Position numbers and translations under genes: made by a program
UHGV virus genome: UHGV-0119342
Direction: 5' to 3' (one strand)
From: a virus
DNA: 10,976 nucleotides
The notes under the pieces: generated by a model
The model's input: only the letters and a program-made list of their open reading frames with translations
Told to the model about the DNA's origin: nothing
Database searches by the model: none
Part shown: positions 125 through 10,896 of the stretch, in pieces
How the letters are laid out: every line of letters starts with the position of its first letter
How positions within the stretch are numbered: position 1 is the stretch's first letter

Positions 125-1528
125 ATGAAACGTGTAATCAGCTACATCAGATTCAGTTCTGAGCGACAAGCCAAAGGCGACTCACTACGCAGACAGTCTA
201 AGATGGTTAATGACTGGCTTAAGGCTCATCCTGAGTACTACCTTGACCAAGATTTATCCTTCCGTGATTTGGGGGTGAGTGGGTTCACTGGTAAGCACTT
301 GAAAGGTGGCTTAGGTGACTTTTTAACCGCTATCGAGAAAGGGCTTGTTAAAGCTGGTGATACGCTCTTGATAGAATCTCTTGACCGTCTGTCACGTCAA
401 GATGTAGACCAAGCAAGTGAGCTACTCAGAAACATTCTTCGCTCTGGTGTAGATGTGGTCACCTTGTCCGATGGTGAACATTACACACGAGAATCTCTTA
501 AAGACCCGTTAGCTCTGATTAAAAGCATTTTGATAATGCAGCGGTCGCATGAGGAAAGTTTGAGGAAGTCTGAGCGTATACAAGCTGCATGGGATGCAAA
601 GAAAGAAGCTGCTAAAGCCGGTATCAAGATTTCTAGGCGTTGTCCTGCATGGCTTAAGCTTAATGATGACCGTAAAAGCTTCTCTGTGATACCTGAGAAG
701 GTAGAAACTGTGAGGAGATGCTTTCAATTACGGTTAGAGGGTAAGTCTATCTGGGAGATTGTCCGGATTCTTAATGATGAAGGTCACCAGACACTTAACC
801 AGTACAAAGCAGGTAAGTTTGGTCAAACCTCAGTGCAAGACCTTCTGAAAAATCGCTCTGTAATTGGTTACTTCACACCTAAAGGCTGTGAGGAGATAGT
901 TGGTTATTTCCCCCCTATCATCCCTGAGACTGATTTCTACAAAGTCCAGCAACTATCATATTCTCGTTATGGAAGAAAGCCTGCTTCAGATAAACCATTG
1001 AGTGTGAATCTTTTCAAAGGTGTTATCCGTTGTTCTGAATGTGGTCATGCTCTGATTATCACAGGCTTTAGCGATACAAGAAGCGGTATATATCGCTGTC
1101 CTTCTCGAAATGAAAACCGTTGCAATGCCAAAGGGCTGTCACGTAAGCAAACCGATGGTACATTACTTGCCCTGCTATCCCGTATAGACCGATTTGATAG
1201 CGATATGACGAATACCATAGACACACTGAAGCTACACCGTGAACACATCTCAAGCAATATTGAAAAGCTGGTACAGCTATCACTTGAAATTGAAGACTTG
1301 TCCGCTATTACCAGCAAACTAAAACAGTTAAAAGGTGAGCTATCACAGGTTGATGCGGATATCGAGAAGGAGACACAACGCCTTAAATCTATTGATGTGG
1401 GGTGTTTGTCTGATTGTGACTTGACTACAAAGGCGGGAAGGATTGAAGCACAACTGATAATCAAAAGTGCTGTTAAAGAGGTCGTTTTGAATACTGCTAA
1501 ACGTCGATGTAACTTTTCACAACGGTAA
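125..1528 (+). CDS. Large serine recombinase (integrase/resolvase family)
   Basis: 467-aa ORF. N-terminal resolvase-type catalytic region (YIRFSSERQ with candidate catalytic Ser; LIESLDRLSRQ), Cys-rich zinc-ribbon-like segment (CSECGH...YRCPSRNENRC), C-terminal coiled-coil-like stretch. GGTGG about 8 nt upstream of ATG. Confidence 0.85.
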   Translation: MKRVISYIRFSSERQAKGDSLRRQSKMVNDWLKAHPEYYLDQDLSFRDLGVSGFTGKHLKGGLGDFLTAIEKGLVKAGDTLLIESLDRLSRQDVDQASELLRNILRSGVDVVTLSDGEHYTRESLKDPLALIKSILIMQRSHEESLRKSERIQAAWDAKKEAAKAGIKISRRCPAWLKLNDDRKSFSVIPEKVETVRRCFQLRLEGKSIWEIVRILNDEGHQTLNQYKAGKFGQTSVQDLLKNRSVIGYFTPKGCEEIVGYFPPIIPETDFYKVQQLSYSRYGRKPASDKPLSVNLFKGVIRCSECGHALIITGFSDTRSGIYRCPSRNENRCNAKGLSRKQTDGTLLALLSRIDRFDSDMTNTIDTLKLHREHISSNIEKLVQLSLEIEDLSAITSKLKQLKGELSQVDADIEKETQRLKSIDVGCLSDCDLTTKAGRIEAQLIIKSAVKEVVLNTAKRRCNFSQR

Positions 1529-1657: not shown

Positions 1658-2422
1658 TCAGTAGCGCTTGTTAGGATTCACAGAAAACTTCCGTAAAGCA
1701 TTACCCGACTTAAGCACCTTTGAAGCTTGCTCATTAGCTGAGGCTGTGAAGGTGCTCTCACCATTTTTAACGCTAACGCTCTTAGAGCACGTTACACGGG
1801 CTTTTAGCGCTTCATCTGATAACTCACTTGCCGAATAGCTAAAAAGCTCTTTACAGGTCAGCATAGGGCTTCCAAGGCTCGTTGTAGTGTTGCCAGTGTT
1901 CTTTTTACTGGTAGAACCGCCATCATTCGTGGTAGCGACCTTTCCAGTAGCTGCTGAAACATCAGTTTGCCCTACGATTGAACGAAATTCTACACCTTGG
2001 AAGGTCATCTGAATACGAAGACCATTAGCAATGGTATGCTCTTTACTCGCTTTAAACTGAGTAATGATACTATCAGTGATAGATATTCCATCTTTACAAA
2101 CAATAGTGATGATTTGCTTCTGGTCTCGCCATTGTTCAACCGTAGAAATAAAGGTCTCTACAAGTTGCCCCTGTCTGGTTAATAGAACTGAACCCGTCGA
2201 ATCAACCACTACAACACCGCTAATAGAGATGGTCTTAGGTGCTCTCTGAACATTATCAGTGATAGTTTGCCCCGATTGCATAGCCTGAGTTGTCACCATC
2301 ATCGGTGAGTCATAGTCCATCTGTTCAGTAGCTGTTAAGGCAAGAAAAGATTCTACATTATCTCTAAGGTGAAAATAGATACCATCTTTACCTGAGTATC
2401 TAATTTGCTTTGTGTCAAACAT
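1658..2422 (-). CDS. Hypothetical protein, possibly tail-associated (immediately downstream of the tape measure gene)
   Basis: 254-aa ORF, AGGA 9 nt upstream of ATG, Ser/Thr/Gly-rich C-terminal half. Functional guess from position only. Confidence 0.6.
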
Positions 2423-2441
2423 TGTTGTTATTCCTATTCTG

Positions 2442-2487
2442 TTAAGCGTGAGCTACGTGAAATCTAATTTTTGATGTTGGTATCTGC
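2442..2487 (-). promoter_or_regulatory. Conserved promoter-like element, copy A, about 20 nt upstream of the 254-aa gene start
   Basis: Minus-strand reading gcagataccaacatcaaaaattagatttcacgtagctcacgcttaa is about 70 percent identical to a 46-bp element upstream of the tape measure gene; contains a -10-like TAGATT after an A-tract, no canonical -35. Confidence 0.5.
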
Positions 2488-2553
2488 TCAGAAGAAATCA
2501 CGTAGCATTCGACTATTCATAGTTGAATCGTCATACTAGATAAAGATTAATAG

Positions 2554-2571
2554 ATTGCCATGTGTGGCAAT
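2554..2571 (-). terminator. Candidate hairpin 25 nt downstream of the tape measure stop
   Basis: Perfect 7-bp inverted repeat attgcca / tggcaat with 4-nt loop tgtg; AT-rich but not pure U tail on the minus strand. Weak terminator or attenuator. Confidence 0.3.
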
Positions 2572-2595
2572 AAATATTAGTAGTTCTAACATTGT

Positions 2596-4662
2596 TTATT
2601 CCTCTGGGTAAGCGGAGCTAATCAAGGTATCTTCCTGCATACGATTAATATGCGATGTGGTTCTTTCATCAATAACCTTTCCATCAAGTACCGTCTGAGT
2701 TGTGATATTGATTGTCTGAGGCTGAATATTTACTGACGGCTTGATAACCTTTAAATCTTGTGTGAATGTTTCCACTCGACCTTTCAGATTATTTAATGCT
2801 TCAGGTGAAAACTGTGGAACATCTTTTGATTTGCCATGAACCATAGCCCATAAAACAGCAGCTAAAGAGTTCATGTCACCAGTCAATGCTTGGTCTGTGG
2901 GTTCCACCTTTGACCTTACAACTTTGTCAATTGGATTATCTGACTTACTCATCTGACGTTCATAGAACGGTTTAACAATGGAGTTAATCACATCAGTTGC
3001 CATACCGACAATCATTACTTTGGTAATTGCATCAGCTACAGATAATTTTCCTTTACCACCTTCAACACTACCGGAACGTGAATTAATTCTTCCCGCTGCT
3101 GTATTTGCTACATTTCCAAGCATGGAAATAGCCCTAATTAAGTTCCAGATACCACCTACAGCACCAATACCAGACCTTACAGCGACAATACCAGCAAGTC
3201 CCTTTAATGCACTTAACAGGCCATTTGCGATACCATCAGCTACAGCTTTTTGAGTGTCATTTAATTCTCTGTAAGCAAGGGTCACTCTGTCAAAGAATCC
3301 CTGCACTCGGTAGCTAATCGTGGTTAAATCATCAATACCGTTTGACATGCTTTTCATCAGGTCGCCAAAATGTTCACCAAGATTTTTAGATTGACCACCT
3401 AGTGAATTAAGTAAATTAGTCAGTGACCTTGTAAAGTCTGTTAAACCTTCCTGTGAACCGTCGAACATTAAGGCCAGATTATTATTCCATGAATTAGAAA
3501 GGCGGCCTAACTGCGTCTGAGTAGAGTTAATAATCTTTTCCCATCCACCAGCTTTATCAATCATCCTTCCCATTTCAGCGGATACTTTAGGAAGAACATC
3601 TTTAGAAAGAACTTTACCGTTCTTCATAGCTGCATCTAATTGCTCGGTAGTCATCCCAAGGCTTCTGGCAAATAACTGGAAAGCACCTGCCATTCTGTCA
3701 CCTAATTGACCACGTAGCTCTTCAGCCTGAATCTTCCCTTTAGAAGCCATCTGCTCGAAAGCTTTCAGAATCCCGTTAATTTCATCAGTGCTTAAACCCA
3801 TTAGTCGGGATGTACCAATCACATTAGAAAATAAGGATTCTTTCTGGTCTGCATTCATATCACCAGCACCAGCGGAAAACTTAGCAAAGCTACTTAATGT
3901 TTCAATCTGGTCTACACCTGTATTATTAGCAAGATTCTTAACGAAGTCTGTAGCTCGTTTAGCGCCTTCATCGCCTAATACAAATTGTGCCGCTCGTTGT
4001 GATGCTTCTTTTTTCAGACCAATCTCCATAATCTTCCTATAAGCTTCTAAGGCTGTCTGAAAACTATAAATGGCTGTACCTGCTTTGATTGCACTTGTAG
4101 CTAATACATCTAAACCATTTGAAGCATTTTCACTGTGATTGTTTTTGCTGGTGGTCTTATTAAACTTAGAAAGTGTTTCACGTAGATTTTGATTTAACTT
4201 TGCTAACTCACGATTAAAAGCTTCGTTCCCAAGTGTCTTGGATTTACCGCTTAAGCTGTAATACTGGCTTCTAAAATACTTCTCAAGTAGAGGATTAAAG
4301 TCACGAAGCTTGCTCATATTCACGCTATGCGCTGCTGTGATTGCTCTGTTGCCGCTAATTCGTGGTTGCCTTGCTGCTTTAACAGTTTCTTCAACCTGAG
4401 TTTTGAACTTAAAGACCTTCGTAGATTTGGCTCTTTCCTCCAGCTTATTAAAAGTCTGGTTAATCTTCTTTTCCATATTCCCCAAAGAGGCTGTTAAATC
4501 CTTATCCATGCTCTTTGGGTTAACTTTAAATGCTCTATTCAAATTGCGTTCAATTCTTTGTGCTGACTGCAAAGCTGCCTTTTCAACTCTTTGCAGTCCC
4601 TTAATAACGTTTTCATTGAAGCCTAGCTCAACGATAAAACTATCAACTGTGAATTTGCTCAT
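2596..4662 (-). CDS. Phage tail tape measure protein
   Basis: 688-aa ORF. Coiled-coil-like N-terminal region, central segment resembling the conserved tape-measure domain (GKIQAEELRGQLGDRMAGAFQLFARSLGMTTEQLDAAMKNGKV), Gly-rich hydrophobic segments near the C-terminus. AGAGGTG 10 nt upstream of ATG. Confidence 0.8.
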   Translation of the reverse strand: MSKFTVDSFIVELGFNENVIKGLQRVEKAALQSAQRIERNLNRAFKVNPKSMDKDLTASLGNMEKKINQTFNKLEERAKSTKVFKFKTQVEETVKAARQPRISGNRAITAAHSVNMSKLRDFNPLLEKYFRSQYYSLSGKSKTLGNEAFNRELAKLNQNLRETLSKFNKTTSKNNHSENASNGLDVLATSAIKAGTAIYSFQTALEAYRKIMEIGLKKEASQRAAQFVLGDEGAKRATDFVKNLANNTGVDQIETLSSFAKFSAGAGDMNADQKESLFSNVIGTSRLMGLSTDEINGILKAFEQMASKGKIQAEELRGQLGDRMAGAFQLFARSLGMTTEQLDAAMKNGKVLSKDVLPKVSAEMGRMIDKAGGWEKIINSTQTQLGRLSNSWNNNLALMFDGSQEGLTDFTRSLTNLLNSLGGQSKNLGEHFGDLMKSMSNGIDDLTTISYRVQGFFDRVTLAYRELNDTQKAVADGIANGLLSALKGLAGIVAVRSGIGAVGGIWNLIRAISMLGNVANTAAGRINSRSGSVEGGKGKLSVADAITKVMIVGMATDVINSIVKPFYERQMSKSDNPIDKVVRSKVEPTDQALTGDMNSLAAVLWAMVHGKSKDVPQFSPEALNNLKGRVETFTQDLKVIKPSVNIQPQTINITTQTVLDGKVIDERTTSHINRMQEDTLISSAYPEE

Positions 4663-4679
4663 TCATATTTTTCACCTCT

Positions 4680-4725
4680 TTAAGCGTGTTGTACGTAAAT
4701 TCTATTTTTCAGTGTGGGTATTAGC
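4680..4725 (-). promoter_or_regulatory. Conserved promoter-like element, copy B, about 18 nt upstream of the tape measure start
   Basis: Minus-strand reading gctaatacccacactgaaaaatagaatttacgtacaacacgcttaa; -10-like TAGAAT after an A-tract; both copies end in CACGCTTAA just before the RBS. Confidence 0.5.
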
Positions 4726-4779
4726 TTTACAGATTTCATGAGGATAATTCTTATCCGAATCATCACGTAGCACACATAC

Positions 4780-4821
4780 AAAAAAAGGGAGAGCTACCGA
4801 TGTCACTCGATAATCTCTCCC
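4780..4821 (-). terminator. Rho-independent terminator (minus strand) between the 71-aa gene and the tape measure gene
   Basis: Perfect 7-bp GC-rich stem GGGAGAG / CTCTCCC (4787-4793 / 4815-4821), 21-nt loop, followed on the minus strand by a run of 7 U (4780-4786). Confidence 0.55.
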
Positions 4822-4871
4822 CGTACTATAGATTCGATAGAACCTATCTCATATACCCAACCAATTCTTTT

Positions 4872-5087
4872 TTAATGTCTGACAAGATAATGTAATTCCG
4901 TTTCACCTATGATTTGAGCATCAGAAGGAATACGGTCAATACACCACTTTGGAATCTTGCGTGTTTTTGGTTTGTGTGAGGTGATAACTTGACGTTTGTT
5001 TTTAATTCTTAAGGCTGGCTTAGTTTGTAACTTTAAGTTTTCACAAGCCGACTTAATAGTTTCATAACGCTGTTGCAAATCAATCAT
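4872..5087 (-). CDS. Hypothetical small basic protein
   Basis: 71-aa ORF, GAGGT 6 nt upstream of ATG, starts 23 nt after the stop of the upstream 234-aa gene; Lys/Arg-rich C-terminal half. Confidence 0.6.
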   Translation of the reverse strand: MIDLQQRYETIKSACENLKLQTKPALRIKNKRQVITSHKPKTRKIPKWCIDRIPSDAQIIGETELHYLVRH

Positions 5088-5110
5088 TCATCTACCTCAC
5101 ATATGCATAA

Positions 5111-5815
5111 TCAAACAGCCTTGCTAAATTCTCGTGGAACACTCAGAAAATCATTGAAGCTGATAATCTGTGCCAACTCTTGACGGTACTCCTTAGCCAG
5201 CGCTTGATGGTCACTAATCAGCTTAGCCAGTCTTGATTTCAGCAAATTAATCTCATTTTCTCTTGCTTTCATCAGTTTCTCTTTGGCAATTTCTTCAAGC
5301 TCAGCTTGTGATTTATCAGCAACAATTAGAGACAATCGATGTGGTGCTCTGACAGCTCTTTCCGTACGAATAACCCTTTGACCTTCTGGTAAATCTGCAA
5401 TCACTTTACCAATCTCTACAGGGTCATACCCCCAACCGTCACGGTCTAGTCGAGAGAAATAAGCATAAGAATTGGTTTGAAGCTCCATTAAAATAGCCAT
5501 TTCGTCAATTTCGTCTTCAAGCTTGGACTGAATTTTCTCGTAAACACTTCTCATTGCTTCTTGAGAGTCTTTAATAGCTTGGAAATATCGGCGTTGTAGC
5601 TTCAACTTCAAATCAAGTTCACAACTTTCGTTCATAGAAAAATCAATTTCAACTCTTGGAATCTCGAGTGGTTCTGGTGGAATATATGGACCTTTATTTA
5701 CTTCGTGTGATTCCCGCCAAGCTCTATCAAAAGATTCACGCAAAGTTAATTCGTGAATATCAAGTGCACTTGGTCGGCTTTCAATAATCATTTCATTTTC
5801 ATCACGGATAGCCAT
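5111..5815 (-). CDS. Hypothetical acidic protein with coiled-coil-like C-terminal half
   Basis: 234-aa ORF, AGAGGAAAGG 5 nt upstream of ATG; heptad-like helical C-terminal region. No recognisable catalytic motif. Confidence 0.65.
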   Translation of the reverse strand: MAIRDENEMIIESRPSALDIHELTLRESFDRAWRESHEVNKGPYIPPEPLEIPRVEIDFSMNESCELDLKLKLQRRYFQAIKDSQEAMRSVYEKIQSKLEDEIDEMAILMELQTNSYAYFSRLDRDGWGYDPVEIGKVIADLPEGQRVIRTERAVRAPHRLSLIVADKSQAELEEIAKEKLMKARENEINLLKSRLAKLISDHQALAKEYRQELAQIISFNDFLSVPREFSKAV

Positions 5816-6020
5816 TAATACCTTTCCTCTTCTAAGATAATTTATGTTTCAGTTTTTAAAAAGCACACCTGACATCCTCGAACTTAGAAGAGGCTTAAAA
5901 GGCGTTTGCCAAGTATGCTTTTTAAAAGCTGAAAAGGCCCTAGATAACTAAAACGCTATAAAGGGCTAAGGTGAAGAAATTAAAACATCTAAAGGATTCA
6001 ATAACGAATGAACAAGAGTA

Positions 6021-6069
6021 CTTTTCGAGATGACCTCTCAGGTTATATAAGAGGTCATGTAGCGAAAAG
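6021..6069. repeat. Nested palindrome in the leader upstream of the 234-aa gene
   Basis: Inner perfect 9-bp inverted repeat atgacctct / agaggtcat (6030-6038 / 6050-6058) with 11-nt spacer, flanked by outer arms cttttcg (6021-6027) / cgaaaag (6063-6069). No U-tract on either strand. Confidence 0.45.
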
Positions 6070-6155
6070 CATTGCACCTTTCCAAATCAGAATATCCATC
6101 CATCGGATTATTGAAAATATGATTTTAGGAAGAGTTGCTCTTCCCTATAATTAAA

Positions 6156-6184
6156 ATTATGTCATACTTAAGGTTATTTGTCAA
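6156..6184 (-). promoter_or_regulatory. Candidate sigma70-type promoter (minus strand) for the 234-aa / 71-aa genes
   Basis: Minus-strand -35 TTGACA (6179-6184), 17-bp spacer, -10 CATAAT (6156-6161); implies a leader of about 330 nt. Confidence 0.4.
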
Positions 6185-6462
6185 CAGCCTTTTAACAGAT
6201 TGGTAACATCAATTTCTATTTACTGTGTTGCCTACCCAGCAACCAACAAATAAGCCAAGCAACGTCCAAGCAATTATTAAGCCCATTAGTGAACCCTCAC
6301 AGAATCCGTAACCAAAATATTGTCGCCGTACAGGATTGTCACAGCACCTTTCAAAAATTGCTCTGGGGAAATACTGTATTTGTTCGTTTGCTCGATAACC
6401 AATCTTTTCATGTCGCTGTCTGCAATTGGTAGCATCATTCGAGGCTCGTTAAACTCCACCGA

Positions 6463-6609
6463 CTAAATAAAGTCAGAGATGTTTTCTGCATTATCAGCCA
6501 TCAGCTTTAGTAATTTATCAAAATTAATTGCGATACCTGCATCACTGAAAGCCTGAATCATCAGAGCGGTGTCGTTATCAACGAAAATCTGTAATTCGTA
6601 ATTGCTCAT
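6463..6609 (-). CDS. Small acidic hypothetical protein (48 aa, not in the supplied ORF track)
   Basis: Hand translation MSNYELQIFVDNDTALMIQAFSDAGIAINFDKLLKLMADNAENISDFI; AAGGAG 9 nt upstream of ATG. Confidence 0.4.
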   Translation of the reverse strand: MSNYELQIFVDNDTALMIQAFSDAGIAINFDKLLKLMADNAENISDFI

Positions 6610-6764
6610 TTTTAAAATCTCCTTTTTACCAGACCTCCTCAATCGCTCTGTAACGAGCTAAACAGTCTTTTTCAGGGGTAGCCTGTACAGTGGTATTACC
6701 CACCCTAAAATAAGATAGTTTTTTGCGTTAGAATGCGATTGAGAGCGTCTGAGAAGCTGTTTTT

Positions 6765-7052
6765 CTAATTTCTCTTAAAGTCTCGGACTTGCATAAGATT
6801 TTTTGGTCTGGTATCGGCTCTGTTACCATTTCGATGGATAATTTGCTTATTGGATTGATAGCCATGATAAAGGAACCAGACAACATATTTCACGTAGAAA
6901 GTATATCGGCCTATATTAAATGTTTTGTTGCCGTAGTCGTCGGTATTTATCGTGACTGACTCTCCATCAGACCAGCACAGGGAATCACTGGATTCATCAT
7001 AGATAAGGTGTTCTGTAAAATATCGTCTAACATCTTCATGCCAAGGTTTCAT
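6765..7052 (-). CDS. Truncated HNH-like protein, paralogue of the N-terminal part of the 9540-10064 endonuclease
   Basis: 95-aa ORF, GAGGAGG 4 nt upstream of ATG. Shares KPWHEDVRRY with KAWPEEVIRY and VVWFLYHG...IIHRNGNRADTRPKNL with VIFYLYHG...IDHIDGDPLNNAISNL, but ends before the final HNH Asn and has no AP2 domain. Confidence 0.65.
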   Translation of the reverse strand: MKPWHEDVRRYFTEHLIYDESSDSLCWSDGESVTINTDDYGNKTFNIGRYTFYVKYVVWFLYHGYQSNKQIIHRNGNRADTRPKNLMQVRDFKRN

Positions 7053-7264
7053 AAAACCTCCTCACCCCAATAACCTAATTCAATCTTGTGACGCTCAAAC
7101 CATTCTGGCTTGACTGCTGCTTTCAGTACTTCATTTGGGCCAATGGCTTTAATGAAAATATCTTTTGAGTTATGGATGTCACCGAATCCGTTTCCTTTAA
7201 TCAGGAGGTCGGAGATGTAGCGAATCATTTTATCTGTGTGGTATTCAAAGGTAACGCATAGCAT
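7049..7264 (-). CDS. Hypothetical protein
   Basis: 71-aa ORF, GGAGG 4 nt upstream of ATG; start overlaps the stop of the upstream gene by 1 nt, and its stop overlaps the start of the 95-aa gene by 4 nt. Confidence 0.55.
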   Translation of the reverse strand: MLCVTFEYHTDKMIRYISDLLIKGNGFGDIHNSKDIFIKAIGPNEVLKAAVKPEWFERHKIELGYWGEEVL

Positions 7265-7542
7265 TAAACCTCCAGAGACAGCTTGTGAATTTTAAGACTC
7301 AATAGACGGGCAATATCAATCTTAAAGCCGTTAAGCGCCTTCAAAGTAGCTAAAGCGTCCTGACTAATTCGGATGTGTTTACGACCTTTAGAGACTGGAT
7401 ATTTCAGTAAATCCGACTCAGTAACCTCTTTAGCAATTGCAAGCTGCATAACAGTTTGATGAGGGAGGTTAGTTGTCTGTTTAATTCGGGTAAGCTCGTG
7501 AAAGGCTTCTTCTGAAATACGGGTCAAAGTGTGTTTCTTCAT
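7264..7542 (-). CDS. Ribbon-helix-helix (CopG/Arc-like) DNA-binding protein, putative regulator
   Basis: 92-aa ORF, AGAGGA 8 nt upstream of ATG. N-terminus MKKHTLTRISEEAFHELTRIKQTTNLPHQTVMQLAIAKEV fits the RHH strand-helix-helix pattern; a second similar segment (HIRISQDALATLKAL...) may be a tandem repeat. Confidence 0.55.
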   Translation of the reverse strand: MKKHTLTRISEEAFHELTRIKQTTNLPHQTVMQLAIAKEVTESDLLKYPVSKGRKHIRISQDALATLKALNGFKIDIARLLSLKIHKLSLEV

Positions 7543-8100
7543 TTAAAATTCCTCTGTAACTAAATACGGGTCAAACTCAAAGTCTGGTTGCTCGTTTTCC
7601 ATTGGCTCAATATTTCCAACGGCAATATGATGCTCAACAACACCAATTAACTTTGCGCACATTACAGCAAGCAATGCACAATATTTATCGCTTGGTAATT
7701 CGTAGCTAAGTCTGGTTGCTTGTCGCTGAAGATGATTTGTCACGGTGGCTGAGTTAATTTCATCAAGGTTCTTTAGGAGATAAAATAGCTTCTTGTTGTA
7801 TTTCGGGTGACCTTCACCTCTACAGAATCCAATGAAAATATCATCAAGCTTACTTGGTAATTGTTCGTAGCTGTCAAAGTTAGCCAGATAATTTTTGATG
7901 CTGTTCTTTGTTGTTTTGCGTACTGACATATAACGACTCCTCGGTGTAATTGCCCGAATTACTTCGTCAATGCCTTTGCGCTCTGCTCTGGTGAACTTGG
8001 GTACTTCGTGACTGGTGGGGGAGTTTGTGTAAGCGTAGGAGTTGTGCTTGTTGCGTTCTCTTGATGCCTGAAGCATCGCTCTAAATTCTCTGTCGTTCAT
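7543..8100 (-). CDS. Hypothetical protein, first gene of the leftward operon
   Basis: 185-aa ORF, GAGGG 11 nt upstream of ATG; stop codon directly abuts the next start (TAAATG). Acidic/aromatic C-terminal tail (DFEFDPYLVTEEF). No recognisable domain. Confidence 0.6.
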   Translation of the reverse strand: MNDREFRAMLQASRERNKHNSYAYTNSPTSHEVPKFTRAERKGIDEVIRAITPRSRYMSVRKTTKNSIKNYLANFDSYEQLPSKLDDIFIGFCRGEGHPKYNKKLFYLLKNLDEINSATVTNHLQRQATRLSYELPSDKYCALLAVMCAKLIGVVEHHIAVGNIEPMENEQPDFEFDPYLVTEEF

Positions 8101-8151: not shown

Positions 8152-8180
8152 ATCTTAGCAGTTTCAAAGACTAATGTCAA
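8152..8180 (-). promoter_or_regulatory. Candidate sigma70-type promoter for the leftward operon
   Basis: Minus-strand -35 TTGACA (8175-8180), 17-bp spacer, -10 TAAGAT (8152-8157); back-to-back with the plus-strand promoter. Confidence 0.3.
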
Positions 8181-8187
8181 GCATTTT

Positions 8188-8217
8188 TTAACATTTCATT
8201 AACATCTGTGGTATAAT
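8188..8217 (+). promoter_or_regulatory. Candidate strong sigma70-type promoter with extended -10
   Basis: -35 TTAACA (8188-8193), 18-bp spacer, TGg + TATAAT (8209-8217); points toward the small ORF at 8348. Confidence 0.5.
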
Positions 8218-8347: not shown

Positions 8348-8524
8348 ATGGTAAATCTCCCTCCTGAGCTGGGGTCACCTGATGTATGGGCTGGTGGAGG
8401 TGTTGGGCTGATTGCAGGCCTGCTACTTCGCTATGTCCTCGTCAGAGTGCTTGTTGTCTTTAAACTGTTCGGTCGTACATGGACGCTTGACCTTAAGGAT
8501 AATGACCACACAGACCCCCGTTAA
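8348..8524 (+). CDS. Small single-pass membrane protein (58 aa from the ATG; the ORF track begins at a TTG at 8330)
   Basis: AGGA 6 nt upstream of the ATG at 8348; hydrophobic segment WAGGGVGLIAGLLLRYVLVRVLVV; locally GC-richer than its surroundings. Confidence 0.45.
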   Translation: MVNLPPELGSPDVWAGGGVGLIAGLLLRYVLVRVLVVFKLFGRTWTLDLKDNDHTDPR

Positions 8525-8538
8525 ACTCCCTCCAAAAC

Positions 8539-8570
8539 CCCCTGTACGAGATAGTATAGGGGTGTCTTTA
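8539..8570 (+). terminator. Candidate terminator after the small membrane-protein ORF
   Basis: Imperfect 8-bp stem cccctgta / tatagggg (one mismatch), 8-nt loop, followed by tgtcttta. Confidence 0.3.
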
Positions 8571-9453
8571 GCATTTTGTGCTATCTATTAAAAAATAGCT
8601 TGACAGAACAGGAAAGCTGTATCTATCAAGTATTCACCTCTCTGACAGTAATTTCTAAAAGTTCTTATTTTTCAATAAGTTGTAATTAGCCAATATATAA
8701 GGCTGTCCAGTACCTTCACAGAAAAACTTCAGAAGCCTTCTTAATCAATCCACTAAGCGAGAGAGAGCGATAACCCCAGAGAGGGAAGCTCCCTTCTTAA
8801 AAACCTTCTTGACAATCTTTACAGGCCTTGTTCAAGGTAATCGCAATAGTTTTTCTTCCCTCGGTTTCCCGTGTTCCTCGGTTTGCCTATTGAGGTTTGA
8901 AAGACCTCTGTAACTTCCCTCTTAGACAGGGAAGAATAATATTGGTGACACAAGCGAAGCGCCCCTCTAAAAAGATTTTTTAGCTATTTTGTTTAAAAGC
9001 ACATCAAACGATACATTTTATTGATTTAGGTCAAAGACAAAAGCATTGACAAAATGGTAAGATTGTTCACATGACCTTACTTAACAGATTCTTAAGAGCT
9101 TTGAAGCGGCCTATTTAACAAGGTCACTACCTCTGGTCTTATCGTTCCCTCTCTTCTTGGTAGTTCTGTTAAGTATCTTTTCAGGTATCTCTTACAGTCA
9201 CTGTTAAGATGATACTCTCCCTTCGGGTTATATCGTTACTTTCTCTCCCGTTAAACACTCCTTCCTAACTATCTACATAATCACTTCTAAGAATCTTACA
9301 AGGTAATATCCAGACCTCTTATAGCTGACCTGATACAGAAACATTACAGGCATACTCTCTAGGTTCTGTGTAGTTCCCTTGGTGGGAATAGATGCTCCTA
9401 CAATAAGAGCATCATTAATCTATATAGTCCTCTTCCGAGAACTTAATAGTTTT

Positions 9454-9481
9454 TTGATGTACATCAATCATTATCTAAAAT
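9454..9481 (+). promoter_or_regulatory. Candidate promoter for the HNH endonuclease gene
   Basis: -35 TTGATG (9454-9459), 16-bp spacer, -10 TAAAAT (9476-9481). Confidence 0.3.
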
Positions 9482-9539
9482 ATGATATGAAGTTTCTTGG
9501 TAGTATTACATCAACAAGTTAATTGAAATAAGGAATATT

Positions 9540-10064
9540 ATGGTGACTAGGTATACCAAGGCATGGCCTGAAGAAGTTATAAGATACATCAATGAAAATA
9601 TTACAGCAGATTTTGAATCTGGAACATTATTTAGAAATGGTGTAAAAATCGAGGGTTCACTTGTAAATCCTAAACCAAGACAATATCTGGCTTTTGGTTG
9701 TCGGATTAATGGTAAGTTCAGAATACTTAAGGTGCATCAGGTTATTTTCTATCTATATCATGGTAAACAAGCTAAACTATGGATTGACCATATAGATGGT
9801 GACCCGCTAAATAATGCTATTAGCAATCTTCGCGAGGTTACCAAAGAGCAGAATCAGGCAAACATGATACCCAGAAAGAAAACAAAATCAGGTTACAAGG
9901 GAGTACACCCAAGAGTGGATAACAAGGGGTTCTGGGCTACAATACGCTGTAATGGAAAATCTCATTATCTGGGTCAGTTTAATACAGCAGAAGAAGCTGC
10001 AAAAGCCTATGATGCTGCATCACTGGAATTGCATGGTAAATATGGACACAGGAATTTTAGCTGA
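9540..10064 (+). CDS. Free-standing homing endonuclease, NUMOD4-like N-terminus + HNH nuclease + AP2 DNA-binding domain
   Basis: 174-aa ORF, AAGGA 5 nt upstream of ATG. HNH motif VHQVIFYLYHG...IDHIDGDPLNNAISNLREVTKEQNQAN; AP2-like C-terminus YKGVHPRVDNKGFWATIRCNGKSHYLGQFNTAEEAAKAYDAAS. Confidence 0.85.
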   Translation: MVTRYTKAWPEEVIRYINENITADFESGTLFRNGVKIEGSLVNPKPRQYLAFGCRINGKFRILKVHQVIFYLYHGKQAKLWIDHIDGDPLNNAISNLREVTKEQNQANMIPRKKTKSGYKGVHPRVDNKGFWATIRCNGKSHYLGQFNTAEEAAKAYDAASLELHGKYGHRNFS

Positions 10065-10104: not shown

Positions 10105-10896
10105 ATTAAAGTTTATACAGTGATTTTTCATCTTCTAATTTTTTTATAAAAATCGTAGTACCCCCTCTACATTCCCCTTCACCGATAATCTTAAAAAATA
10201 TCTACACTCAATTGATGGCTGTTAAGTACCCCAGATTCACGATATAGCACCCCCTTTGCAAAAGCAGTTAAAATATCTATAACCAATTATTGACTTTCTT
10301 CATAGCATCTGTTTACCTCCACCTCAAAAAAACCTTCATCACATTTCACAGCATCTATCAAGAAGATTTAACCTATCAATAGCTGTAACATTTTATAGTC
10401 CTGTGAAGTCCTCCCCAGTTTTCTCTGTAACAGACACAAACTTCTGTGACCTTATGTGTCAATGACTTATAAGACATGCTCTCAAGGTGCTGTATAGCCT
10501 CTTATCTTCCAATACATAAAACTCTTATAAATCAGTACTGATATGTATACAGTTCGTTTTTAACATAATAGCTGTTTTACGCACTAAGAAGCATCTACGT
10601 AGATTCTGTATAGAGATTAAGATGTCTCTAAGTGATTTTTTAAGAGGAGATACGAAGGAACTATAACCATCACTTCATAACTTTCACGTAGGTAGCTATT
10701 AAGTAGGTTGATAGTCACTTTGAGGGAATATTGATAGTGACCAACTGCATAGACACCGTTATATAGCCCTGTATATAGCACTATATGTAGTGTCTGGAGA
10801 GGAACGACTAACACGATACAGTTTACCCTGAAAAGAGACTTCACAGATTCTCTATATATTTCAATAAGTTATGATAAAAAGAGACTATATCAATAC

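Follow-up and report, generated by a model that had tools for sequence, protein, structure and literature searches.

The DNA analysed here, referred to as the window, is the virus genome UHGV-0119342 at its full length of 10,976 nucleotides. It is near-identical to Escherichia coli chromosomes that carry an element of ~11.9 kb inside yecE, the two halves of the interrupted gene flanking the element as pseudogenes. A large serine recombinase gene is followed in the window by a minus-strand block encoding a Dit-like baseplate protein, a tape-measure protein and several small proteins, then by a gene-free region of about 1 kb (8525-9539), an HNH-AP2 endonuclease gene, a second gene-free stretch and one further gene. 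The gene-free region at 8525-9539 is the main subject of this work. It is conserved, modular and non-coding, and its most constrained part is, judged by sequence comparison, homologous to a unique element in the terminal repeat of virulent Felix O1-like phages (Ounavirinae). Together with a second phage-related block beyond the endonuclease gene, it may mimic signals by which these phages process and package their DNA.

A preliminary description of the window had called the region free of open reading frames (ORFs) of 60 or more amino acids (aa), which is correct: the longest comprise 47 aa (9379-9522, plus strand) and 44 aa (8819-8953, minus strand), and RefSeq places no annotation within 8525-9539. 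Two alignments were used for comparison, one with nine relatives and one with 42 distinct sequences collected from genomes, from IMG/VR and from metagenomes. None of the small ORFs is intact throughout the nine relatives, and a third-codon-position bias is absent. Several other features highlighted in the description fared less well. The strong pyrimidine skew ascribed to the whole region is ordinary at that scale (53.9% vs a window mean of 52.5%, with 30% of equal-sized windows at or above this value), and the minus-strand coding block at 1658-8100 has a similar overall bias of 54.1% pyrimidine. Locally the skew is real: with 64% pyrimidine, 9120-9330 ranks among the highest 0.4% of 211-bp windows, and the maximum of the entire window begins at 9110, so that the skewed stretch covers ~9110-9330; it is due to the pyrimidine-rich centre of a palindrome (9132-9158). 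The 'ctctcc' blocks are located at 9215-9220 and 9243-9248 rather than at 9226-9232 and 9244-9250. The direct repeat cctcggttt does occur at 8859-8867 and 8876-8884, but it is kept in the closest relatives only and is probably due to chance. TTGACA boxes are likewise present at 8809-8814 and 9046-9051, but their reading as promoters is unsupported: the former is a degenerate unit of a CTTCTTAAC-type repeat, whereas the latter lies inside the most conserved block and lacks a properly spaced -10 hexamer, TAAGAT following only 6 bp after it. The data do not support the whole-region skew, the cctcggttt repeat or TTGACA-based promoters as carriers of the signal.

The comparative alignment that the description had proposed reveals a conserved region with hairpins kept by compensatory change, a mosaic of modules that differ in their conservation. 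The segment 8941-9210 is strongly conserved, with 85-94% identity across relatives at 9031-9120 and a peak of 91-94% at 9031-9090. In a blastn search against 50,697 phage records, matches to the window at ~9115-9175 were restricted to the Ounavirinae (Felixounavirus and Mooglevirus) and always fell into unannotated DNA. The match extends to 9055-9175, with E = 4e-13 in the pairwise comparison and E = 2.5e-12 in an nhmmer search with a phage profile, and the corresponding phage block exists in one copy in the 83-kb genome of phage mio. In addition, 66 island-type sequences (the window and 65 further loci) were scanned with the 1.6-kb phage non-coding region in blocks. Only two blocks of this region recur in islands, mio 1153-1332, which contains the mid-repeat element, and mio 853-1032, which contains a junction at one end of the repeat; both are among the blocks best conserved between phage genera. 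The mid-repeat core is present in 45 of the 66 sequences.

Direct terminal repeats (DTRs) have been demonstrated experimentally for the Felix O1-like relative UAB_Phi87, where they measure 608 bp (PMC4837284). Phage HP1 has an annotated 570-bp repeat at both ends and ECP2307 an exact 592-bp repeat at both ends, and the two agree on the ends of the DTR, ^GGTAGCCC... and ...GTTAAGGGGGC^ (the caret marks the cut); in phage mio the DTR corresponds to 937-1527. Within the first 2 kb of the mio genome, 13 of the 19 plus-strand copies of the TAACAAG/CTTAACA motif are clustered, which sets the non-coding region with the DTR apart from the rest of the phage genome. Another motif, TGnTAAGAT, was considered as a general phage promoter motif and dropped: mio contains 21 copies vs ~5 expected, but they are mostly inside genes.

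A weaker second copy of the core lies upstream in inverted orientation (Table 1). Its own core, GCGATAACCCCAGAGAGGGA, is kept in all islands, and GCGATAACCCCAGA(G/A)AGGGA is kept in all relatives, even in those that do not have the plus-strand core. With 86% identity at 8761-8790 vs 54-73% in the neighbouring sequence, the inverted copy forms a conserved island in a variable stretch.

The second phage-like block (10128-10295) is situated in the next intergenic segment, outside 8525-9539; its phage homolog is the junction at one DTR end. The homology spans the cut site of the phage, the equivalent position in the window being between 10224 and 10225 (CTGTTA^AGTACCCC vs CTGCTT^GGTAGCCC in the phage). 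Across this site, the phage reads ...TATATCTGCTT^GGTAGCCC...CTTTGCAAAA..TTAAAATATC, the window ...GATGGCTGTTA^AGTACCCC..., and a Citrobacter island ...TATGTCTGCTT^GGTACGG..., to be compared with TATATCTGCTT^GGTAG in the phage. With nhmmer, the window gives E = 4.5e-5 and the Citrobacter island E = 2.8e-14. Between divergent islands, the junction block is the best conserved non-coding DNA: the window and island L008 are 93.7% identical here vs 79% in the 8525-9539 region. Furthermore, island L024 (and also L034) shares with phage BPS15Q2 (locus L017) a 24-bp insertion (TCTAGTTGATTCGGTAGAATCTACC...) just before the cut site, at about window position 10205, which contains the palindrome GGTAGA-A-TCTACC. 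This shared insertion suggests continuing or recent exchange, or co-variation, between the island and its putative helper phage.

Several further stretches of phage-like non-coding DNA were encountered. A minus-strand segment between the recombinase and Dit-like genes (1559-1604) has weak profile similarity (E = 0.006-0.02), too weak to interpret, to mio 1503-1614, the phage DNA just outside the other DTR end. A hairpin at 4819-4853, downstream of a 71-aa ORF, shares 86-89% identity over 35 bp with a phage hairpin beside the DTR (mio 1930-1964; HP1 locus L009 1606-1640) and, by eye, looks like a terminator. Absent from the window, but present at L008:3476-3581 and also in L024 and L034, is a block of ~17 pentamer-periodic GGTNN units with a terminator, which is 75-82% identical to the intergenic segment that follows the DNA ligase gene in Felix O1-like phages. 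In islands that do not carry the HNH-AP2 gene it is located between the core and the terminus-like block, as a third helper-derived non-coding module.

The core lies within an imperfect palindrome of six nested helices, in which CTTAACAG (9080) pairs with CTGTTAAG (9201), TTTAAC with GTTAAG, and ACTACC (9126-9131) with GGTAGT (9159-9164), around a 27-nucleotide pyrimidine-rich centre at 9132-9158. For 20 island sequences, the RNAalifold consensus fold has an energy of -24.8 kcal/mol, vs -5.3 +/- 2.6 kcal/mol for 200 column shuffles (z = -7.6); the minus-strand consensus reaches -20.2 kcal/mol (z = -5.8). The phages, too, form a stem about this centre, but its register is shifted (GGTCACTA/TAGTGATT vs ACTACC/GGTAGT in the islands). 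Thus, it seems to be the pairing rather than the sequence of the arms that is maintained.

Upstream of the core, the remaining modules can be followed from the leftward operon towards the right (Table 1). The divergent promoters at 8152-8217 match the consensus at 10/12 and 11/12 positions, respectively, each with a TG. For the small ORF downstream of the rightward promoter, substitutions by codon position (70/37/95) suggest that it is coding; no family match was obtained in Pfam, PHROGs or NCBIfam. Its stop codon borders the region, and a terminator-like hairpin follows; the segment 8525-8670 has folding z-scores of -2.7 (plus strand) and -3.2 (minus strand). The segment 8563-8700 is 81-94% conserved. 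It includes the promoter-like module at 8591-8635, the -35 context of which repeats that of the main leftward promoter as an inverted repeat, and which overlaps a 13-bp imperfect hairpin (8598-8631). The following segment, 8700-8940, is variable owing to indels and to one to four CTTCTTAAC-type repeats. The two degenerate units in the window resemble non-coding phage repeats left of the DTR, with a weak profile match to mio 499-654 (E = 0.02). At the end of this segment, two short hairpins, H0 and H1, are adjacent to each other; H1 is the hairpin that the preliminary description had placed directly after CCTCTGTAAC, correctly so. Since loop lengths differ and MAFFT aligns the arms out of register, both were assessed by folding each allele separately: most of the 13 alleles of H1 still pair, and H0 exists as GAGGT/ACCTC or CAGGGC/GCCCTG.

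Within the most conserved block, TGgTAAGATTGT (9055-9066) matches the -10 region of the main leftward promoter at 13/16 bases and may have promoter activity. At the corresponding place, the phage DTR reads TGtTAAGAT, and the alignment with the phage begins at TG.TAAGAT. On the right of the palindrome, H3 has three alleles, the outer stems of which are fully compensatory (GATAC/GTATC, AGAACC/GGTTCT and GTAAC/GTTAC), and the window carries a hybrid allele with a 4-bp stem; in the RNAalifold alignment, the pairs between columns 149-151 and 177-179 have changed on both sides. An exact 10-mer, CCCGTTAAAC, followed by C/T-rich sequence, has two copies, one at the small-ORF stop codon (8517-8526) and one just after H3 (9247-9256), the latter being conserved across relatives.

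H0 and H1 border a point of cargo insertion: the equivalent of 8913-8945 is taken up by a cassette for a Dam-like N6-adenine methylase in L005 as well as in several loci from metagenomes. The HNH-AP2 gene is absent from the otherwise collinear islands L006, L007, L008 and L012, in which the region abuts the terminus-like block; in the Citrobacter island, the equivalent of window position 9387 is separated by 51 bp from that of 10102. The methylase cassette and the HNH-AP2 gene hence mark two cargo slots within the non-coding region. Breakpoints near 10107-10141 in metagenome contigs were considered as ends produced at a cut site and rejected; they are boundaries of the presence or absence of the HNH gene, not contig ends.

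Table 1. Features of the window and their coordinates.
Feature	Position	Strand	Basis or remark
Large serine recombinase	125-1528		Resolvase, Recombinase and Zn_ribbon_recom domains
Dit-like baseplate protein and 688-aa tape-measure protein genes	within 1658-4662	minus	
Small proteins without family match and one HNH protein	within 1658-8100	minus	Coding block left of the 8525-9539 region
Divergent sigma-70-type promoters	8152-8217		Segment 79-84% identical across relatives
Main leftward promoter (leftward operon)	8180-8152	minus	TTGACA-17-TGcTAAGAT
Promoter of the small ORF	8188-8217	plus	TTAACA-18-TGgTATAAT
Small ORF, 62-64 aa, one hydrophobic segment	8330-8524	plus	'Hypothetical protein' in some RefSeq genomes
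Terminator-like hairpin for the small-ORF transcript	8539-8562	plus	9 bp stem, then TGTCTTT
Promoter-like module (putative promoter)	8591-8635	plus	AAAAATAGCTTGACA-N18-TATCAA; 89-94% identical in relatives
Segment single in the window, tandem duplicate (~94 bp period) in most relatives	8645-8722 (~78 bp)		Overlapping BLAST high-scoring segment pairs
Weaker, inverted second copy of the mid-DTR core	8728-8812	minus	CTCTGGGGTTATCGCTCTCTCTCGCTTAGTGGATT on the minus strand; nhmmer E = 1.3e-4, 1.7e-3
Two degenerate units of the CTTCTTAAC(CGAC)-type repeat	8790-8815	plus	1-4 copies in relatives
Adjacent short hairpins H0 and H1	8892-8908 (H0), 8914-8934 (H1)		Conserved CTGTAAC between them
Most conserved block, extended -10-like	9034-9066	plus	AAGACA-N18-TGgTAAGATTGT; near-invariant in 42 distinct sequences
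Block homologous to mid-DTR	9055-9175	plus	Phage mio 1162-1275
Imperfect palindrome, ~130 bp, six nested helices	9079-9209	plus	RNAalifold
Hairpin H3, CCTTCGG apex	9211-9236		Three alleles with compensatory outer stems
HNH-AP2 endonuclease gene, mobile cargo	9540-10064	plus	Pfam HNH_3 and AP2
Second gene-free stretch, then one further gene	after the HNH-AP2 gene		
Block homologous to the junction at one DTR end	10128-10295	plus	Next intergenic segment, outside 8525-9539

The proteins of the island point to the same phages. The tape-measure protein is ~30% identical in amino-acid sequence, over its full length, to tape-measure proteins of Felix O1-like phages, and the tape-measure/Dit-like pair is collinear with the phage genes mio_90/mio_89, at 68-73% nucleotide identity in patches. 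Such genes would be an unusual cargo for a satellite and suggest tail remodelling or interference with tail assembly. In searches of Pfam, PHROGs and NCBIfam, only the Dit-like, tape-measure and HNH families were recognised apart from the recombinase, and the other seven proteins match nothing; capsid, terminase and replication families were not recognised, although distant homologs may exist. The neighbouring 185-aa protein likewise has no family match, its homologs are all annotated 'hypothetical', and its AlphaFold model has a mean confidence score (pLDDT) of only 41.7.

Islands of this type are common. Of 5,426 complete E. coli genomes, 443 (~8%) contain relatives of 8525-9539, always in the chromosome, at several insertion sites and in up to five copies per genome. 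Strains Z0117EC0032 and WP9-S17-ESBL-11 carry the island and are identical over the 1.3 kb at 8400-9700 used as query. The 185-aa protein is also encoded in Shigella, Salmonella, E. fergusonii, E. albertii and Citrobacter. These host genera agree with the host range of the matched phages. The attachment region at yecE, at the right boundary of the island (17527-17566 in locus L001), is also used by Stx-converting and 'PPyecE' lambdoid prophages, the record ends of which match the yecE boundary at 94-98% identity. Among the metagenome contigs checked, only one is circular, the relative L058 (ERZ506742.633), an assembly of 11,178 bp with a terminal overlap of 55 nucleotides. The L058 circle speaks for an extrachromosomal or tandem form and, with a serine integrase that is 35% identical to that of the window, for swapping of integrase modules.

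An integrase gene, discrete insertion into yecE and a circular form of a relative, combined with a gene complement in which family searches recognise no full set of virion, packaging and replication genes, are the traits expected of a phage satellite. The island family is thus best read as satellite-like islands tied to virulent Felix O1-like phages, with both the lifestyle and the link to the helper suggested by homology. For the non-coding blocks, we favour the following interpretation, to which we would assign a probability of roughly 50%: the core and the junction block mimic signals for DNA processing and packaging of the helper, such that helper enzymes, above all the terminase, process and package island DNA. 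The core, within its ~130 bp palindrome, would have been copied from the middle of the 570-592 bp DTR of the helper and would constitute, together with the junction block, a cis-acting mimic; replicated or concatemeric island DNA would then serve the helper terminase as a substrate for recognition, cutting and encapsidation. Of the three options that the preliminary description had offered for the region, non-coding RNA, regulatory hub and packaging or replication site, it is the packaging site that gains support from the two DTR homologies (9055-9175 and 10128-10295), whereas hallmarks of a replication origin were not found. That these blocks are under constraint follows from their identity, 85-94% at 9031-9120 and, for the junction block, well above that of the 8525-9539 region.

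A number of observations weigh against this interpretation. In the class II islands, approximately a quarter of the variants (e.g. L008), an unrelated hairpin replaces the plus-strand core, while its flanks and the junction are kept; the core may hence be dispensable or specific for certain helpers. The other terminus of the phage (GTTAAGGGGGC^TAGC) has no homolog in the islands in profile and block searches, and the arrangement is permuted, as the phage junction is 225 bp upstream of the core, whereas the island core is 450-1,100 bp upstream of the junction. The TAACAAG repeats of the phage are not enriched in the island. The phage blocks are candidate packaging elements by virtue of their position relative to the termini. 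Many one-sided changes compatible with G-U pairing, the slightly better fold of the plus strand and the upstream extended -10-like element would also fit a function at the RNA level. Finally, a genome of 12 kb in a head for 84-90 kb would need packaging of multimers or remodelling of the capsid.

The main rival reading, a function as structured RNA, is possible, if unlikely. The extended -10-like element (9034-9063) would start a plus-strand RNA near 9070, which would fold as the 9079-9209 hairpin, followed by H3. It could act as a small RNA or as a leader, e.g. the 5' leader of the HNH-AP2 gene, or as a regulator or decoy related to an RNA from the helper DTR, the 27-nucleotide pyrimidine-rich loop being free to pair with purine-rich (Shine-Dalgarno-like) targets. 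The promoter-like modules, the terminator hairpin, the compensatory alleles of four short hairpins and the palindrome are all in keeping with the RNA and regulatory-hub options. More specifically, TGgTAAGATTGT is near-invariant and in some variants improves to TATGAT, the phages have TGtTAAGAT at the homologous position, the consensus fold is far more stable than those of shuffled columns, G-U alternates with G-C or A-U at many plus-strand positions, and the local pyrimidine content of 64% falls exactly on this segment. However, the -35 element is weak (AAGACA) and a promoter scan did not list this promoter; the segment is not followed by a canonical terminator, as no U-tract accompanies H3. 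Folding of the minus strand is nearly as good, as a palindrome in DNA would lead one to expect, single-sequence folding energies are similar on both strands, and the closeness of the sequences to one another limits the covariation. The covariance-model scan proposed in the preliminary description matched no family: with Rfam 15, the sole match in the window was Ocean-VII at 884-933, with 18.4 bits vs a gathering score of 53.5, and no match was obtained in two phage non-coding regions or in two other islands. Searches for tRNA and tmRNA genes found none. An RNA would also leave the conserved homolog of the terminus junction unexplained. An alternative that we consider improbable is that a helper-type origin, or a loading site for primase or helicase, was copied from the DTR and that the helper replisome amplifies the island. 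Primary origins of T4 and T7 consist of a promoter plus a structured or unwinding element, a layout that the core resembles; the corresponding phage region is a unique, repeat-rich non-coding site, a replication protein was not recognised in the island, and a relative has been assembled as a circle. Yet the region has no iterons or tandem repeats, no cluster of DnaA boxes (DnaA-box-like matches are below chance level), an initiator gene was not recognised, and TAACAAG, the best iteron candidate in the phage, is not kept in the island. Nor would an origin need conservation of the junction across the cut site.

Two further explanations are unlikely in view of the conservation and the ORF analysis. 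The phage-like blocks might be a relic or recombination scar from Felix O1-like phages in a region that mainly serves as a tolerant landing pad for cargo (HNH-AP2, methylase), without a specific function in cis. Gain and loss of cargo genes at this place, the mosaic structure with shuffled alleles, and the class II islands that do without the plus-strand core are compatible with such a relic, which is nevertheless very improbable: the phage-like blocks are the most conserved non-coding parts of the islands, equal to coding sequence, across E. coli, E. albertii and Citrobacter; just two specific blocks of the phage region are retained, in most islands; and hairpins are maintained by compensatory changes. 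That unannotated small protein genes fill the region, the finding that the preliminary description had named as decisive against a non-coding role, is hardly credible. ORFs of 20-47 aa exist and one of 37 aa (8576-8689) is intact in several close relatives, but frameshifts or stops break every one of them in some relatives, that of 37 aa in L005, L006, L007 and L012, and substitutions in the latter (18/23/15 by codon position) do not accumulate at third positions. The non-coding assignment therefore stands.

If packaging mimicry applies, it has a more speculative extension, which appears doubtful to us at present: the islands would be the first satellites of phages with exact DTRs and would represent a natural minimal substrate, in which one junction and the palindrome comprise the essential cis signals and head-full multimers are packaged. 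The palindrome may act as a hairpin, or as RNA, that primes duplication of the repeat, and multimers of ~7 x 11.9 kb would amount to roughly 83 kb, the genome size of the helper. Felix O1-like phages are classic phages for typing of Salmonella and E. coli, biocontrol and therapy, and the signals of their terminal repeats are unmapped. A satellite of these phages would probably affect their efficacy and their outcomes in terms of host range, would carry methylase, nuclease and other cargo genes from one enterobacterium to another, and would point to the cis elements that direct terminal-repeat packaging, a long-unmapped step. In the literature searched, we found neither a description of this island family nor of any satellite of Felix O1-like phages; mimicry of a packaging site by a satellite with a virulent DTR helper, in an apparently undescribed yet common family of enterobacterial islands, appears to be new.

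Packaging that generates direct terminal repeats can be compared with that of T7 and T3, for which pacB, pacC and a hairpin intermediate at the concatemer junction have reportedly been described. In these phages, cis elements lie in or next to the repeat, an inverted repeat is proposed to prime duplication of the repeat, and plasmids carrying the junction are packaged as multimers. The DTRs considered here have no sequence relationship to those of T7 and T3, and Felix O1-like phages lack a phage RNA polymerase (PMC3185647). With the PICI/SaPI and cf-PICI elements of enterobacteria and staphylococci, the islands have in common that they are integrated, ~10-15 kb in size, would exploit helper virions and have hotspots for cargo. 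The defining proteins of these elements, however, which are tyrosine integrases and their own small terminase or capsid genes, were not detected here, and their helpers are temperate. P4 keeps a non-coding cos site like that of its helper P2; it has cohesive ends, its own primase/helicase, a capsid-size determinant and a temperate helper. The likeness is that of a satellite with a non-coding copy of the site at which the helper terminase recognises and cleaves DNA, whereas the islands, in place of cohesive ends, have one terminus junction and an internal repeat element, in permuted order.

A close parallel is provided by PLE (phage-inducible chromosomal island-like element), a satellite of Vibrio cholerae, which also integrates by means of a large serine recombinase. 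According to Boyd and Seed (2024, doi 10.1101/2024.04.22.590561), PLE has a mimic of the pac site of ICP1, its virulent helper; the mimic comprises 14 bp of the pac site, which were shown to be needed for transduction, and PLE encodes Gpi, GpsA and GpsB. The islands described here differ in that the helper would be a phage with exact DTRs, the shared DNA amounts to ~120 bp and ~170 bp, tail genes of the tape-measure and Dit-like types are carried, and the relationship is one of sequence. Both would be small islands in a bacterial chromosome that live at the expense of a virulent myovirus and carry a non-coding copy of its packaging site, to which, in the present case, homology points.

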